From the IMG/VR virus record IMGVR_UViG_2802429243_000001: a DNA stretch of 27,929 nt, one strand, 5' to 3'. Positions 23,016 to 27,929 of the stretch are shown here, piece after piece (the first letter of the stretch is position 1; the number at the start of each line of letters is the position of its first letter). The notes below the pieces were generated by a model that saw only the letters and a program-made list of their open reading frames with translations, made no database searches and was not told where the DNA came from. This DNA is from a virus (taxonomy: Duplodnaviria; Heunggongvirae; Uroviricota; Caudoviricetes). The position numbers and the translations under genes are program-made.

Positions 23016-23023
23016 ATCATAAC

Positions 23024-23052
23024 GTCCGGTTTCTTCCGCGCCAGAACCGGAC
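23024..23052. terminator. Inverted repeat GTCCGGTT-13 nt-AACCGGAC directly after the YbcV-like stop; possible terminator
   Basis: Perfect 8-bp stem seen in the sequence; no clean U-tract. Confidence 0.35.
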
Positions 23053-23603
23053 TCGCTGGCATGATGAAATATGTGTACCCGGTAACCCCGGTGTGCATCG
23101 TTTTTGATTATTCCCGCACACTCACGCAGAAGGAATTCCCCGTCGGGCTACGGTCTCTGTTAATACGGGAATACGGCGACGATACAGCGCATGATGTGTC
23201 AGGCTTGAATACCTTTATCCTTTAAAAGGGATATCAGTTAAGTTATCCCGTGTAGGGTATAAGCCATTATCAAAGCCACTCTGTAGGGAATGGCTTTTGT
23301 GATGGCATCACTTACTCTTTACGCTGCTATCCCACTCATCCCGGAATTTTGATGGGTTATTGAAACCTTCTGCTGACATAACAACTCCTTCAATGTTTGG
23401 CTGAAATTAGGATGTCTTTCCATCAGTCCGCCACCACAAAGAATCTTTTTTGCCATAAGGCAGGAGGTTCATCTTTCAGTGGCTGCCGGTGTTATTTCTC
23501 CACTTACTGGCTTGGGTTGTTTCGTGGTACTGCCGTTAACTGGTGGCCCAGAATAAATTCCGGTTTCATTATCAAGCCCACCCGTAAATGGGCTTTGTAA
23601 TGG

Positions 23604-23879
23604 CTACTTCACTTTTGCTTTTGCTTTTGCTTTTGCTTCCGCTCGCTTACGCCGGCGCTCTTCTTTCCTCTCGGCTTTTGCCATGTCCATGAATGCCTGC
23701 ATGATCGAGTTCCGCATCATGTAGCTAACAAAGTGATGATTGACACAGCCGTTGAGGCGCAGCTGCTCGCCAAACTCATCCACCGAGGCCAATGCTTCCA
23801 TCATGCCCTTCTCGCCTTTCATGAACTCTGAGAAGTCGCGCCCCGCTCTGGAGGCGCATTCAATAACCCGATCACTCAT
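23604..23879 (-). CDS. Hypothetical protein (91 aa) with KR-rich and (AK)n C-terminal tail; coupled to the upstream KilA-N gene
   Basis: ATG overlaps the KilA-N gene stop (ATGA at 23876-23879). C-terminus KAERKEERRRKRAEAKAKAKAKVK. Confidence 0.55.
   Translation of the reverse strand: MSDRVIECASRAGRDFSEFMKGEKGMMEALASVDEFGEQLRLNGCVNHHFVSYMMRNSIMQAFMDMAKAERKEERRRKRAEAKAKAKAKVK
23612..23638. repeat. Hexanucleotide tandem repeat (CTTTTG, about 4.5 copies) encoding the (AK)n tail of the 91-aa protein
   Basis: Direct inspection of 23612-23638. Confidence 0.8.
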
Positions 23880-24373
23880 CCCGGAAGCCCGGGGATCGTA
23901 ATCTGCAGCTGGTTAGCCAGGGAGTTAATCTCAGCGACCAACACTGGCTTCGTATAGCGCCATGCTGCCAGCCCTTGTCCGCAGAAGCTCGCCATGTCTT
24001 TCTTCTGGTCAAACTCATGACATTTCATGTTGAGCTGCGCACTTAAGCTGTTGCGATGCTGAAGTTCTCCGGTGAAGTAGTCATCGAGGACTTTATAGGC
24101 CGCGTACTTGAACCCGGGGTTTAACCAAGCCGCATAATCGTAAGCAACAAACTTCCCGCCATATGTTCCACCGTGTACACCGCGCTCAGTAAAAACCACA
24201 GATTCGTGGTTTTTCTCCAGCTCGGCTAAGAACTCTTTGGTCTGCTTGTTTCGCAGGTAGTGGTAAGGCGATTCAGATTCACTTTTACCACTGGCTTTCC
24301 ACATATCAGTGAGGCAGATCATGCCATCTTCACCGATACGAATTGGTTGATTGAAGAGGGTTAATGATTTCAT
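23876..24373 (-). CDS. KilA-N domain protein (165 aa)
   Basis: Pattern IRIGEDGMICLTDMWKASGK...YLRNKQTKEFLAEL...RG.HGGTYG...VAYDYAAWLNPGF fits the KilA-N/APSES consensus; ATG at 24373. Confidence 0.65.
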   Translation of the reverse strand: MKSLTLFNQPIRIGEDGMICLTDMWKASGKSESESPYHYLRNKQTKEFLAELEKNHESVVFTERGVHGGTYGGKFVAYDYAAWLNPGFKYAAYKVLDDYFTGELQHRNSLSAQLNMKCHEFDQKKDMASFCGQGLAAWRYTKPVLVAEINSLANQLQITIPGLPG

Positions 24374-24574: not shown

Positions 24575-25033
24575 TTATTTCAGGCATTGCGTCCTGATGT
24601 ATTCCTGCAGGTAGTTAACCTGCGCGGTTATCTTGTCGATTCCACTTCGGAGACGGTAATAATTGAGTTCAGCATCTGCTGTAAGTCCTGGGCTTTCTCC
24701 ATCGCCCATGCCGCTGGCTCCGGTCGTTGACTTTGCACAGGTGGCGGCGACTTGCAGGCGCTTACGCCCAGCAGAAACATCAGCACGGAGACTTTCGATA
24801 GTCGCGTTAGCATCAGCAAGCTCCTTTGTGTATCTTGCGTCGAGTTCTGCTACATCACGTTGACGCTTCCGCATGTCAGCGATGGTGGCGTTCGCCTTCT
24901 CCAGTTCACTGGCCTTGTTATCGCGCTGCTCTTTGTAGGCGATTGCGTTATCACGGTAATGATTAACAGCCAATGACAGGCAGACGATGATGCAGATAAC
25001 CAGAGCGGAGATAATCGCGGTTACTCTGTTCAT
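24575..25033 (-). CDS. Rz: i-spanin Rz (152 aa)
   Basis: [20 protein letters not shown]...NHYRDNA... with N-terminal TM, coiled coil and C-terminal Cys; ATG at 25033 overlaps the R stop (ATGA). Confidence 0.9.
24628..24813 (-). CDS. Rz1: o-spanin Rz1 (lipoprotein), embedded in the +1 frame of Rz
   Basis: [20 protein letters not shown] lipobox, then Pro-rich [16 protein letters not shown]; AAGGAG RBS 7 nt upstream of the ATG at 24813. Confidence 0.8.
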
Positions 25034-25527
25034 TGCTGACCCCACAAACAGATTTCACGCTCAATCTCACGACGAGTCATGAGACCTTTCCATTGCTTAC
25101 CGCCAGCATATGTCCAGCGACGTAGCTGATCACATGTGCCTTTGATATCGCCCTGGTTTATTTTGCGAAGAAGCGTCGATGTTCTGAAATTGCCAGCGCC
25201 CACGTTGTAAACGAACGAGTAAAGAGCGCCGCGCATTGTTTCCGGTATATCAACTTTTATGTACGGGTTAATTTGTCTGGCGACCGTGGCAAGGTCTTTA
25301 TTCAGGAGGGCTTTGCATTCTGCTTTGGTATACGTTTTACCGAGCATGATGTCTTTTCCTGTATGCCCGTGACATACAGTCCATACACCAACAATATCTT
25401 TGTATGGTATGTAGCTGACACCTTCCAGACCATCGTTACCACTTGGGCCAGTGATTAACACTGATGCTATAGCAATTGCTCCGCCACCAATAGCAGCAGC
25501 AACGACTTTTCGTAATGATGGAGGCAT
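25030..25527 (-). CDS. R: SAR (signal-anchor-release) endolysin, phage-21 R type lysozyme (165 aa)
   Basis: Gly/Ala-rich weakly hydrophobic N-terminal SAR domain ([20 protein letters not shown]) followed by a lysozyme domain; matches R21 as recalled. Confidence 0.9.
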
Positions 25528-25742
25528 TATTCACCTCTCGCAGCCTTGCGCTTATCTTCTTTAATCTTGAAATAAAGGTTTGTCAGGTACGTCAGCAGGC
25601 CAAATACCAGGCTACCCAGCACACCTATTGCTGCCCACTGTGAGGGCGTGACTTTATCGAGCAGCTGTAAAAACCAGTAGCCAGCACTGCCTGCGGAGGT
25701 GCCGTAGGCAATGCCCGTTGTTAACTTATCCATGGATTTCAT
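25527..25742 (-). CDS. S: Pinholin S21 (71 aa; dual-start motif MKSMDKL giving the S21-71 antiholin and S21-68 holin)
   Basis: [31 protein letters not shown]...[13 protein letters not shown] matches phage 21 S as recalled; GGAGGTGAGG RBS. Confidence 0.9.
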
Positions 25743-25837
25743 AGCCTCACCTCCGCAAATAACGGATGGTGTACACGGTTCGGAACGAAGAGGAAAGGTA
25801 TAGAAGTTACATTAGCGTAAGGCTTGAACATCTATTC

Positions 25838-25868
25838 AAAAAGAAAAACGCCAGCGATTATTCTGGCG
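25838..25868 (-). terminator. Rho-independent terminator between the AraC-like gene and S
   Basis: Minus strand CGCCAG-aataatcg-CTGGCG followed by TTTTTCTTTTT. Confidence 0.55.
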
Positions 25869-25930
25869 TAGCTGAAAGCATCATACAATTATCAAATACG
25901 AAAATTACAAAATCATTAAAACGCATCACG

Positions 25931-26662
25931 TTACATCATGTCTTTTTCTAAAAAAAATCTTGATGAATATTGATGGGGAGGAACACCAAAATATCTTCTG
26001 AAAACACTTACAAAATATGACGTGTTTTCATAACCGCATATCTCAGCAACTTTTCCAACAGAATATAAATTGTAGCTTAATAACCTTTCCGCCATCACCA
26101 TTCGCTCTTCAAGAATTAATTTACTAAATGATAAGCCTTCGTGCTTTAATTTTCTTTTTAACAGACTTTCACTCAGATACAGTCTTGAAGATATATCACA
26201 AAGTCTCCATGTTGCAGATATATCCGTGTGAATAATAGCCTTAACTTTACTTCCTAAACTATTAAGACATCCAAATAAAAAACTTTGCACTATTTTCTCT
26301 GAAGATAAGATAGCAAGACATGCAAGTGATATTTGATTTCTAACAAAATCCACAGTTCTGCCATCACAATTCAAGCATGCAATCAAGTTCTTTAACAATG
26401 AAAAATCTTCACATTCCACCATCAAGTATGCCGGATAAAACCTTCTTACAGAAAAAGGTGAGAGTGTGTTGCTTTTAAAGAAATCATTAACTGTTTTCTC
26501 TTCAACATCTACGATCATTACATGATCTATATTTGATGAAAAAAAATCTTTTAAATTGTAATCAATGAGAACAGCACTTCCTTTTTTAAACAAAATATCT
26601 TCTTTACCAATTCGGACATCAAACGAGTTCAACACCAAAATGATAGAACATATGTATGGCAT
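25931..26662 (-). CDS. AraC-family transcriptional regulator, AppY/EnvY-like (about 243 aa), AT-rich accessory gene
   Basis: C-terminal AraC-type HTH (VGKVAEICGYENTSYFVSVFRRYFGVPPHQY); N-terminus MPYICSIILVLNSFD... resembles AppY of DLP12 as recalled. ATG at 26662 with AGGTGG RBS; the track start at 26671 is a GTG. Confidence 0.75.
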   Translation of the reverse strand: MPYICSIILVLNSFDVRIGKEDILFKKGSAVLIDYNLKDFFSSNIDHVMIVDVEEKTVNDFFKSNTLSPFSVRRFYPAYLMVECEDFSLLKNLIACLNCDGRTVDFVRNQISLACLAILSSEKIVQSFLFGCLNSLGSKVKAIIHTDISATWRLCDISSRLYLSESLLKRKLKHEGLSFSKLILEERMVMAERLLSYNLYSVGKVAEICGYENTSYFVSVFRRYFGVPPHQYSSRFFLEKDMM

Positions 26663-27013
26663 ATTATCCACCTGATATCATTGGGGTTACACCAGGTAAG
26701 TATAGGTGGAAAATCAATATTCGCCAGTTCAACAATAAGGAAAATCTCATTGCATCACAAGTATAAAATTATGTATTTAACTCACAAAGACAAATTATTA
26801 AACCAATCTGTTATATTATATATAGCTGCGTGGAATCATAATATCATATATTTTGACTGGCATGTTTACCAAATTTAAGTTGCATCTCAATGGTTTCTTC
26901 AGCGTAAACAGAGTTTTTATACAAACTGACACTCTGGGTATCATAGTGTAGTTTTTACGATTGTAAATATCCTGTATGCAGGAACTCATCCTTTTGGATG
27001 ATATCGCATACAA

Positions 27014-27793
27014 TTAATTTACCATCAGTCTTAGAGCCAGTTCGTCCGGATAGGGATCGAAGTAATTCTGTGTAAGCAAGTAATCATTAGGATACTCACC
27101 CAGATAATGCTTCAGCAGAGTCAACGGCGCAAGAAGAGGTAATGTGCCAGAACGATAGTTAAGTATAACCTCGCTCAACTCTTTACGCTGGCGTGTACTT
27201 AAGTAGTTACTAAAATACCCCTGTATATGCATCAGCACATTCGTGTGATTTTTACGTGATGCAGGTTTTCTGAGAATCGCCATCAGCTTATCACGATACA
27301 CCTCAAAGTATGATTCAAGATCCGCCCACTCGTGTATTGCAGCCACAAATGGTCCCATATCTTTATAGCCTGTCTGACTATGCGCCAACAACTGAAGCTT
27401 ATAACGACTATGAAAAGCCAATAACTCTCTTCTTGATAATTTCTCCTTGTAAAGGTGATTGAGCTCATGCAAAGCAAAAACTCTTTCAACAAAATTCTCA
27501 CGAAGCACTGGATCATGTAATCGCCCATCCTCTTCAACCGGTAGCCAGGAAAACTTTTCCATCAAAGTGCTCGTAAATAGTCCCACTCCATCTTTACGAC
27601 CTCGATTACCATTTTCATCATAGACACGCACGCGCTCCATGCCACAGCTGGGAGATTTAGCACAAACCACAAACCCCGATACATCCTTTAATTTGTCCAT
27701 ATAAGAACGACTAAACTCTGTCATTCTCTCTGTCACATCCTCATTCTGGTCGTGGCTGAAACACATCCGTATATTTCCTTGCGTCGAGCGCAC
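27014..27793 (-). CDS. DUF523/DUF1722 (YbgA-like) protein, probably 5'-truncated by the adjacent IS element
   Basis: Contains the SPSCG motif and a DUF1722-like C-terminal half (HTNVLMHIQGY...LLAPLTLLKHYL) as recalled for YbgA; the N-terminal part of DUF523 is absent; the reading frame runs open into the IS terminal repeat; the first in-frame start is a GTG at 27793. Confidence 0.55.
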   Translation of the reverse strand: MRSTQGNIRMCFSHDQNEDVTERMTEFSRSYMDKLKDVSGFVVCAKSPSCGMERVRVYDENGNRGRKDGVGLFTSTLMEKFSWLPVEEDGRLHDPVLRENFVERVFALHELNHLYKEKLSRRELLAFHSRYKLQLLAHSQTGYKDMGPFVAAIHEWADLESYFEVYRDKLMAILRKPASRKNHTNVLMHIQGYFSNYLSTRQRKELSEVILNYRSGTLPLLAPLTLLKHYLGEYPNDYLLTQNYFDPYPDELALRLMVN

Positions 27794-27802
27794 AAGACGT
27801 AG

Positions 27803-27929
27803 TGAATCGCCCCGGGAATCCTGGAGACTAAACTCCTTGAGAGAGAGGTAAACAGGATGACTAAAAATACGCGCTTTTCCCCTGAGGTCCGTCAGCGGGC
27901 CGTTCGTATGGTTATCGAAAGCCAGAATG
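27803..27929 (+). mobile_element. Left end of an IS3-family insertion sequence (IS629/IS3411-like), partial; continues beyond the window
   Basis: Terminal repeat TGAATCGCCCCGGGAATCCTGGAGACTAAACTCC resembles the IS629 IRL as recalled (not identical). Confidence 0.8.
27857..27929 (+). CDS. IS3-family transposase OrfA, N-terminal fragment (continues beyond the window)
   Basis: MTKNTRFSPEVRQRAVRMVIESQN matches the IS629-group OrfA N-terminus as recalled. Confidence 0.85.
   Translation, partial: MTKNTRFSPEVRQRAVRMVIESQN

Follow-up and report, generated by a model that had tools for sequence, protein, structure and literature searches.

The gene directly upstream of the lysis genes in a 27,929-nucleotide (nt) stretch of phage DNA (IMG/VR virus record IMGVR_UViG_2802429243_000001, Caudoviricetes; hereafter the window) encodes an AraC/XylS-family protein whose closest characterised relative is PatE, a prophage-encoded activator of acid resistance in Escherichia coli. 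On balance we favour the reading that this gene is a moron specifying a PatE-like activator of the host gadE/hdeA acid-resistance circuit, carried in the leader of the late operon between the antiterminator gene Q and the holin gene S. The two parts of this reading differ in strength: we have high confidence that the gene specifies a moron-encoded regulator of the PatE/Psr type in the Q-S slot, and we give about even chances to the acid-resistance target set, which is drawn from analogy. Every regulator and lysis feature discussed below lies on the minus strand of the window (Table 1), the remainder of which extends from tail-fibre genes to terminase and represents the late region of a lambda-like prophage.

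The program that listed open reading frames (ORFs) began the regulator gene at a GTG, for a span of 25931..26671; the true start is the ATG at 26662. The GTG lies inside the sequence AGGTGGA, which reads as a Shine-Dalgarno sequence followed by a 4-nt spacer (TAAT) and the ATG. This Shine-Dalgarno sequence is kept in 1H12, IdasGreatGrand and DRR122498, and PGAP, the NCBI annotation pipeline, starts identical genes at the ATG equivalent to 26662. The product is 100% identical to WP_001146311.1 of strain 582. Its residues 161-237 match Pfam HTH_18 at 54.9 bits (cut-off 33.6) and HTH_AraC at 44 bits (cut-off 26.6), and these scores, together with superposition of a predicted structure on GadX (3mkl), place it in the AraC/XylS family, defined by a C-terminal double helix-turn-helix of about 100 amino acids (aa). 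Residues 1-239 align with positions 8-253 of the 254-position phrog_1450 profile (358 bits, E = 5.5e-107). A first-pass annotation made from the letters of the window had described an AT-rich AraC-family gene directly upstream of, and in the same orientation as, S-R-Rz; the ORFs and Pfam matches bear out this placement, and the guanine-plus-cytosine (GC) content is 31.4% in the regulator gene as against 49.2% in S-R-Rz (52.6% in the whole window).

To rank its relatives we used the window protein as the query in pairwise BLASTP comparisons. ECs0287 of the Sakai strain headed the list (53.6% identity over 235 aa, 249 bits), followed by GadW (33.8% over 234 aa, 143 bits), PsrA (ECs1087; 47.8% over 159 aa, 138 bits, or 40% over the full length), AppY (31.8% over 233 aa, 131 bits, E = 5e-41), YdeO (31.6% over 237 aa, 123 bits), GadX (40.6% over 101 aa, 85.5 bits), EnvY (29.4% over 218 aa, 72.8 bits) and YbcM (22.4% over 125 aa, 43.5 bits). 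The protein is thus closer to the PatE/Psr group than to the chromosomal paralogues, with ECs0287 scoring 249 bits against 143 for GadW. Similarity is concentrated in the DNA-binding domain, where identity reaches 72% with ECs0287, 57% with PsrA (taken as its full ORF) and 41% with AppY, as compared with 40%, 26% and 25%, respectively, in the N-terminal domain. The first recognition helix, SESLLKRKLK, is the same in the window protein and ECs0287. Alignments with GadW, AppY, YdeO and ECs0287 run end to end and include a common N-terminal motif, M..CS[VI]I. Among NCBIfam models the best was YdeO (NF007407; 127.2 bits against a cut-off of 348, residues 4-239 on positions 1-234 of 253), and GadX (NF007432) matched the C-terminal half only (85.6 bits against a cut-off of 500). 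YdeO and GadX thus score far under their equivalog cut-offs, and they and GadW (YdeO and GadW being 32-34% identical to the window protein) differ from it in being chromosomal core genes rather than phage cargo.

We infer that ECs0287 is the orthologue of PatE (Z0321), because it is the only AraC-type gene in Sakai prophage Sp1, Sp1 corresponds to CP-933H/OI-8, and the locus numbering is consistent. Z0321 is the 'putative regulator' of the EDL933 prophage CP-933H/O-island 8 (PMC10877973). By sequence, then, the window protein is a two-domain AraC/XylS factor of the GadW/YdeO/AppY/PatE/Psr subgroup with PatE as its closest characterised relative. Its earlier description as AppY/EnvY-like is a loose one, since both AppY (31.8%) and EnvY (29.4%) fall well behind ECs0287 (53.6%). 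The deposited coding sequence of Sakai psrA (ECs1087) is 195 aa long and takes an internal Met as its start; upstream of that Met the frame stays open as far as MVVVCSVI..., a start that gives 237 aa and includes the N-terminal motif of the subgroup, and the psrA annotation is probably short at its N-terminus. A gene of E. coli Nissle called 'PatE' (CIW80_12240), whose overexpression is reported in a 2025 preprint to increase acid survival, was set aside as evidence because its tag could not be mapped: RefSeq CIW80_RS12240 is bcsZ, and the position of the GenBank tag could be close to gadW/gadX.

An AlphaFold2 model built from a nine-sequence alignment (mean predicted local distance difference test score 81.5) has a beta-rich N-terminal domain, a helical linker region and a seven-helix C-terminal DNA-binding domain. 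The DNA-binding domain superposes on GadX (3mkl) with a root-mean-square deviation of 1.7-1.9 Å at 40% identity, and a sequence search of the PDB concurs in making the DNA-binding domain of GadX the best match among solved structures. At full length, the Foldseek matches in the PDB were CsvR, Rns and ToxT (E = 1e-10 to 1e-7, template-modelling [TM] score ~0.55, 16-19% identity), and the ToxT match of the PDB sequence search, over residues 22-233, takes in part of the N-terminal domain. Neither the sequence matches nor the Foldseek matches include GadW, YdeO, AppY or PatE as a full-length structure, so the ranking of the Rns/ToxT folds may mirror which structures have been solved.

The position of the gene is as informative as its sequence. 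The segment 25500-27802 recurs at 99% identity or more in hundreds of E. coli chromosomes. In strain 582, 23CRST050, IdasGreatGrand and 1H12 the order is Q, the lipocalin gene blc (on the opposite strand), ybgA/rudS, the regulator gene, the terminator and S-R-Rz; IdasGreatGrand and 1H12 are viable phages whose regulators are 98.8% and 82% identical, respectively, to the window protein. Exact-match scans of IMG/VR recovered 57 contigs with the regulator, and every one of them that reaches far enough has the same order and orientation. The proposal that the gene occupies the slot in which Shiga toxin (Stx) phages carry stx therefore holds, as this slot is the Q-to-S interval of the intact relatives, and the presence of the gene there in both prophages and viable phages makes it prophage cargo, as are the members of the PatE/PsrA/PsrB group. 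Q and pR' themselves are not visible in the window because it ends 1.27 kb upstream of the regulator start codon (27929 minus 26662), inside an insertion sequence (IS) element of the IS3 family. The expectation that Q and pR' would be found upstream is thus upheld for Q in the intact relatives, where it lies ~2.2 kb upstream, whereas the window itself is cut by the IS at 27803. Approximately 100 nt downstream of the Q stop codon in the relatives is a strong predicted terminator (9-bp stem and T run, oriented in the direction of Q) that occupies the place of lambda tR'; the segment containing it is conserved in 1H12 and IdasGreatGrand.

The cassette is not tied to a single phage backbone. A 237-aa allele, 89% identical at the DNA level, lies in the same cassette on a Qin-type backbone (NZ_CP019267.1; ydfR, rrrQ, rzpQ, cspI). 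Because Q-blc-rudS-regulator-essD is therefore found on both DLP12-type (rrrD/rzpD) and Qin-type (ydfR/rrrQ/rzpQ/cspI) backbones, it is a mobile module exchanged among lambdoid phages. An AraC-like regulator in the Q-S slot is an arrangement already known. In Sakai prophage Sp4, psrA (ECs1087; named in PMC13502914) follows the Q antiterminator gene (ECs1084) and precedes the tRNA genes ileZ-argN-argO and, further on, the lysis genes. In the Stx2k phage phiSTEC1575 a Psr-like AraC gene is flanked by Q on one side and the tRNAs-stx2AB-holin segment on the other, and its product shares 38.8% identity with the window protein. PsrA and PsrB (Z1789/Z2104), AraC-like inducers of gadE (PMC10877973), thus share with the phiSTEC1575 gene and the window gene the slot on the Q side of the lysis genes. 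The psr genes differ in being followed by tRNA genes and effector or stx cargo, with no dedicated terminator directly before S, and in their other moron neighbours. PatE, like the window protein a prophage-encoded AraC-like protein of ~245 aa, differs in location as well as in its N-terminal domain: PatE-type genes (in Sp1 and mEp332), like appY in DLP12, are found at the other classical moron site, the one that follows the tail-fibre genes close to the end of the prophage.

The intrinsic terminator between the regulator gene and S has a 7-bp stem (ACGCCAG/CTGGCGT), an 8-nt loop and the tail TTTTTCTTTTT, with the stem running from 25869 to 25848 and the tail to ~25838; a canonical terminator had been placed ahead of S at 25838-25868, which agrees to within one base. 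It is the top-ranked of six terminator-like sites in 3.5 kb (2.1 ± 1.4 expected), and the centroid fold of the region shows no pairing other than its hairpin. Both 1H12 and IdasGreatGrand have kept the terminator along with the regulator gene. It is absent upstream of essD in K-12 DLP12, where nmpC fills the interval and the sequences become alike again only from the essD ribosome-binding site onwards; we therefore assign it, on sequence conservation, to the regulator gene and not to the lysis cassette. The gene thus has the hallmarks of a moron, namely extra DNA of deviant composition inserted between conserved phage genes (31% GC versus 49%) and a downstream terminator of its own (25838-25869). 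Upstream, an AT-rich spacer of 351 bp separates it from rudS, and within this spacer a candidate promoter sits inside a 28-nt block in which the window-type spacer and the diverged 1H12-type spacer differ at a single position, while the flanks diverge. Other morons of the Q-S interval (stx; nmpC in DLP12), together with bor and lom, are likewise inserted extras of deviant composition with their own terminators, whereas the cargo of the window-type cassette is a transcription factor, a tRNA-demodifying enzyme and a lipocalin rather than a toxin or porin. Such morons can be transcribed in the lysogen and also, through the action of Q, as part of the late message.

The case for acid-resistance targets comes from the characterised members of the group. 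PatE activates gadE, gadBC and hdeAB and thereby raises acid resistance (PMC10877973), and activation of gadE/hdeA with increased acid survival has been described for PatE, PsrB and AppY (PMC10877973; PMC10057817). PsrB binds the hdeA promoter and, directly, the gadE promoter, PatE and PsrB act on the hdeA promoter region from -132 to -45 (PMC10877973), and gadE is a direct target of AppY (PMC10057817). Because PatE, PsrB and AppY all act in this way, because the recognition helices are conserved, and because the DNA-binding domain is 72% identical to that of the PatE type, the window regulator may do the same. The first-pass annotation had proposed a lysogenic-conversion regulator acting on acid-resistance and anaerobic-energy (hya/app) regulons, and had allowed that the best homologues might turn out to have a defined but unrelated role. 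Instead, the homologues PatE and PsrB act on acid resistance. A conversion regulator is a reasonable assignment by analogy with the characterised prophage regulators (PMC10877973, PMC10057817), and the acid-resistance part of the proposal is supported by PatE and PsrB; the hya/app part is without specific support, since the similarity to AppY is weak and AppY is a paralogue. We found no paper on the window protein in the literature.

These elements suggest how the gene might work. In the lysogen, the gene would have a promoter of its own, within the AT-rich spacer that follows rudS, and the resulting transcript would end at the terminator ahead of the holin and endolysin genes, sparing the host their lethal expression. 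As expression of holin and endolysin is lethal, and as Q-modified polymerase disregards intrinsic terminators in lambda, the terminator could insulate S-R-Rz in the lysogen without blocking late transcription. Upon induction, Q-modified polymerase starting at pR' would pass tR', rudS, the regulator gene and the terminator into S-R-Rz, so that the regulator would also be present on the late transcript. In the window copy the IS in rudS is oriented against late transcription and probably weakens or abolishes this second route. The protein itself would bind AT-rich sites at promoters of the acid fitness island (gadE, hdeAB) and raise glutamate-dependent acid resistance, with the less conserved N-terminal domain determining when it is active.

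Table 1. Features at the regulator end of the window, with coordinates on the 27,929-nt stretch.
Feature	Position	Strand	Remarks
Spanin gene Rz	24575..25045	minus	Pfam Phage_lysis, 135 bits; annotated as a 459-nt gene in relatives
Rz1	24628-24819	minus	embedded in Rz; ORF with lipoprotein-like N-terminus
Endolysin gene R, RrrD type	25030..25527	minus	Pfam Phage_lysozyme, 153.5 bits
Holin gene S, P21/EssD type	25527..25742	minus	Pfam Phage_holin_2_1, 120.9 bits; essD in the annotation of relatives
Predicted intrinsic terminator	25838..25869	minus	in the interval between the regulator gene and S
patE-like AraC/XylS-family regulator gene	25931..26662	minus	intact, 243 aa, in-frame T8 allele
Second T8 tract, codons 236-238	25950..25957	minus	after the DNA-binding domain; coincides with 241-aa and 237-aa C-terminal variants
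T8 homopolymer, codons 39-42	26539..26546	minus	frameshift hot spot; window copy in frame
Putative Shine-Dalgarno sequence AGGTGGA	26667..26673	minus	read from the sequence
Candidate own promoter TTTACA-16 nt-TATGAT	26940..26967	minus	~275 nt upstream of the start codon
rudS/ybgA, 3' part, 5'-truncated	27014..27802	minus	Pfam DUF1722 and partial 2-thiour_desulf (TudS desulfidase domain)
End of IS3-family element	27803..27929	plus	terminal inverted repeat (TGAATCGCCCC...); orfA start at 27857; runs off the window

The gene is widespread. At a coverage of at least 80%, 996 of the 5,426 complete E. coli genomes of our collection (~18%) contain it, ~600 of these genomes with a DNA identity of at least 95% and 433 with one of 80-90%. 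Relative to the 1H12 allele the ratio of nonsynonymous to synonymous substitution rates (dN/dS) is 0.28 overall, which indicates purifying selection on the gene; the N-terminal domain has the higher value (0.32) and the DNA-binding domain the lower (0.17). A scan of one genome per species returned one close match, on a contig of a metagenome-assembled genome (MAG), and two distant C-terminal matches; because the back-translated patterns used in the scan were strict, this points only weakly to a clade confined to E. coli. The close match, JARKOR010000151.1 (3.2 kb, binned in a 'Candidatus Nanosynbacter' MAG), carries a 98%-identical copy of the regulator gene and is almost certainly mis-binned E. 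coli prophage DNA.

Many copies of the gene are interrupted at one place, the T8 run near its 5' end. Alleles with seven T residues (T7) stop after 44 codons and carry the PGAP flag 'frameshifted'. Using exact 60-61-nt queries to count both forms in the complete genomes, we found T8 in 243 and T7 in 239, from 516 near-identical alleles overall, and among the 57 IMG/VR contigs the count was 51 T8 to six T7. As T7 is rare in IMG/VR, over-sampling of clinical clones probably explains its high share in RefSeq. Six gene haplotypes, from at least five backgrounds, carry T7; one of them is separated from T8 counterparts by just one or two further sites, one derives from public read runs assembled in Logan, and three T7 sequences have other indels and may be assembly errors. 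The tract is interrupted in the 1H12-type allele, and PatE has no T8 tract. Recurrent loss by frameshift is real, although it does not affect the majority of copies: disruption in most homologous prophages, which the first-pass annotation had named as an argument against its proposal, is not what either collection contains (239 of the 516 complete-genome alleles; 6 of the 57 IMG/VR contigs). We consider it unlikely that the T8 run constitutes a contingency-like ON/OFF switch for an acid-resistance regulator, and that in intact phages dual expression, from the gene's own promoter and by Q read-through, additionally couples prophage induction to a burst of acid-stress reprogramming of the host. 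Under such a scheme slippage would turn the regulator off repeatedly, and possibly on again, as lineages change niche, and constitutive acid-resistance signalling would help in some niches and carry a cost in others. The observed basis for it amounts to the frequency of T7, its occurrence on several haplotypes and the interrupted tract of the diverged allele.

At the upstream end of the window, the homology of its rudS/ybgA copy to intact copies, which encode 319 aa in relatives, ends at 27802. RudS is a tRNA 4-thiouridine desulfidase, and its phage form is a TudS domain fused to DUF1722 (PMC11417400); the 1H12 orthologue gp66 is RudS_vir, with cluster cysteines 12, 44 and 110, and has been tested experimentally (PMC11417400). 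The element beyond 27802 is assigned to the IS3 family through matching sequences that are annotated as IS3 family transposase. Its insertion at 27803 removes ~57 N-terminal residues of RudS, including the cluster ligands Cys12 and Cys44, and because of this loss the RudS of the window is predicted to be inactivated. The IS/rudS junction at 27803 occurs in no complete E. coli genome of our collection (5,426).

Several observations weigh against the proposal of a PatE-like activator of acid resistance. The N-terminal domain is only 40% identical to that of the PatE type, so inputs or partners of the protein may differ, and the recognition helices are alike across the whole subgroup, including members with other regulons, which means that the sequence gives no target specificity. 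The link to PatE itself passes through the orthology of ECs0287 drawn above, and PHROGs annotates phrog_1450 as 'unknown function'. With regard to expression, the candidate promoter is the best promoter-like site in its region, with 10 of 12 consensus matches, in a region where the number of such sites is not above chance, and a promoter scan downstream of Q in the relatives revealed no convincing pR', the candidate TTGCTG/TAACAT being weak. Finally, the frequency of T7 alleles shows that many lineages can do without the gene and perhaps bear a cost in keeping it.

Four other explanations deserve consideration. The gene could be an orthologue of appY (or envY) that controls the hya/app/cbd anaerobic and stationary-phase operons, which we regard as very improbable. 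AppY, also a prophage-borne AraC/XylS protein (DLP12 of K-12), is of the same subgroup and of similar length, and its alignment with the window protein runs from end to end; yet it ranks below ECs0287, GadW and PsrA, its identity is low in both domains, and EnvY aligns only in part, at 29%. Location separates the two as well, since appY lies at the far end of its prophage, by ompT. In strain 582 a sister prophage (NZ_CP120568.1, 2818000-2840000) has a genuine appY beside ompT at its other end in addition to a window-type gene between Q and S, and the presence of both in one prophage makes AppY and the window regulator paralogues. We therefore reject orthology with AppY on the grounds of 31.8% identity, a different location and coexistence with a true appY. 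Some relatives have also kept ybcM. A further possibility, which the full-length fold matches to CsvR, Rns and ToxT and the reach of the ToxT sequence match into the N-terminal domain bring to mind, is a virulence regulator that activates fimbrial or adhesin genes and is switched off by a fatty acid bound in its N-terminal domain; regulators of this type join an N-terminal beta-sandwich with a fatty-acid pocket to a C-terminal double helix-turn-helix. We judge this improbable: the identity to these proteins is only 16-19%, the fold ranking is open to the bias in solved structures described above, and the sequence relatives are all acid-resistance regulators.

The gene might instead serve the phage, as a regulator of rudS, blc or lysis timing and not of host regulons. 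This is unlikely in our estimation, though somewhat less so than the virulence-regulator explanation. AraC-family proteins often regulate adjacent genes, and the order blc-rudS-regulator-S is invariant in all loci examined, across two backbones and viable phages. However, no AraC gene adjoins rudS in the chromosomes of Citrobacter and Salmonella, the regulator gene differs in composition from rudS (31% versus 43% GC), rudS has been destroyed by an IS in the window while the regulator is intact, the characterised relatives act on host promoters, and neither the regulator nor RudS nor Blc is matched by a defence model of PADLOC. The absence of an AraC neighbour from chromosomal rudS also led us to reject an inherited rudS-regulator operon (for example, Salmonella pathogenicity island 2 orf319/orf242); the tblastn match to the regulator in Salmonella is an AraC-family gene flanked by adiA and adiC, which is where adiY is located. 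Decay is the remaining alternative, in which the gene would be cargo that no longer has a function and is turning into a pseudogene as its prophage degenerates. The T7 frameshift in 239 of the 516 near-identical complete-genome alleles, on several haplotypes, fits such a history, as do IS elements in the AT-rich region of several genomes, the window included. We nonetheless think decay a poor prospect as a general account, as the window copy is in frame, dN/dS is 0.28 and falls to 0.17 in the DNA-binding domain, the gene is intact in viable phages and in 51 of the 57 IMG/VR contigs, and the 1H12-type and 237-aa alleles are intact, the former with its slippery tract interrupted.

Elsewhere in the window, the interval between Rz and terminase (23604-24373) contains a KilA-N/ORF11CD3 (antirepressor-like) gene and a 91-aa phrog_875 gene, in place of which 23CRST050 and K-12 DLP12 have bor/iss. 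The KilA-N protein has a weak, partial match to the PADLOC candidate PDC-S22 (E = 1e-8, 30 residues). The adjoining ~590 bp (23016-23603), from the DUF1398/ybcV-like gene to the phrog_875 gene, contain no convincing ORF and are unannotated in strain 582 too. No Rfam family matched anywhere in the window.

Prophage-encoded AraC-like regulators of acid resistance, including ones located between Q and S, are a kind already known, and our findings extend current concepts without changing them. What the PatE-like regulator of the window adds is a further uncharacterised clade (phrog_1450) that reaches far beyond enterohaemorrhagic E. coli (EHEC) and is carried by plaque-forming phages. AppY, PatE and PsrA/PsrB plug into the gadE circuit and, in EHEC, also modulate type III secretion. 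The cassette pairs the regulator with RudS_vir, an eraser of tRNA 4-thiouridine, and so offers a compact model of multi-gene lysogenic conversion from a late-operon leader, while the recurrent change from T8 to T7 provides natural ON and OFF alleles for comparisons of fitness. Should the regulator work as PatE does, commensal, extraintestinal and multidrug-resistant lineages of E. coli would owe an altered acid survival, a property that bears on passage through the stomach and on infectious dose, to a common cassette of temperate phages.

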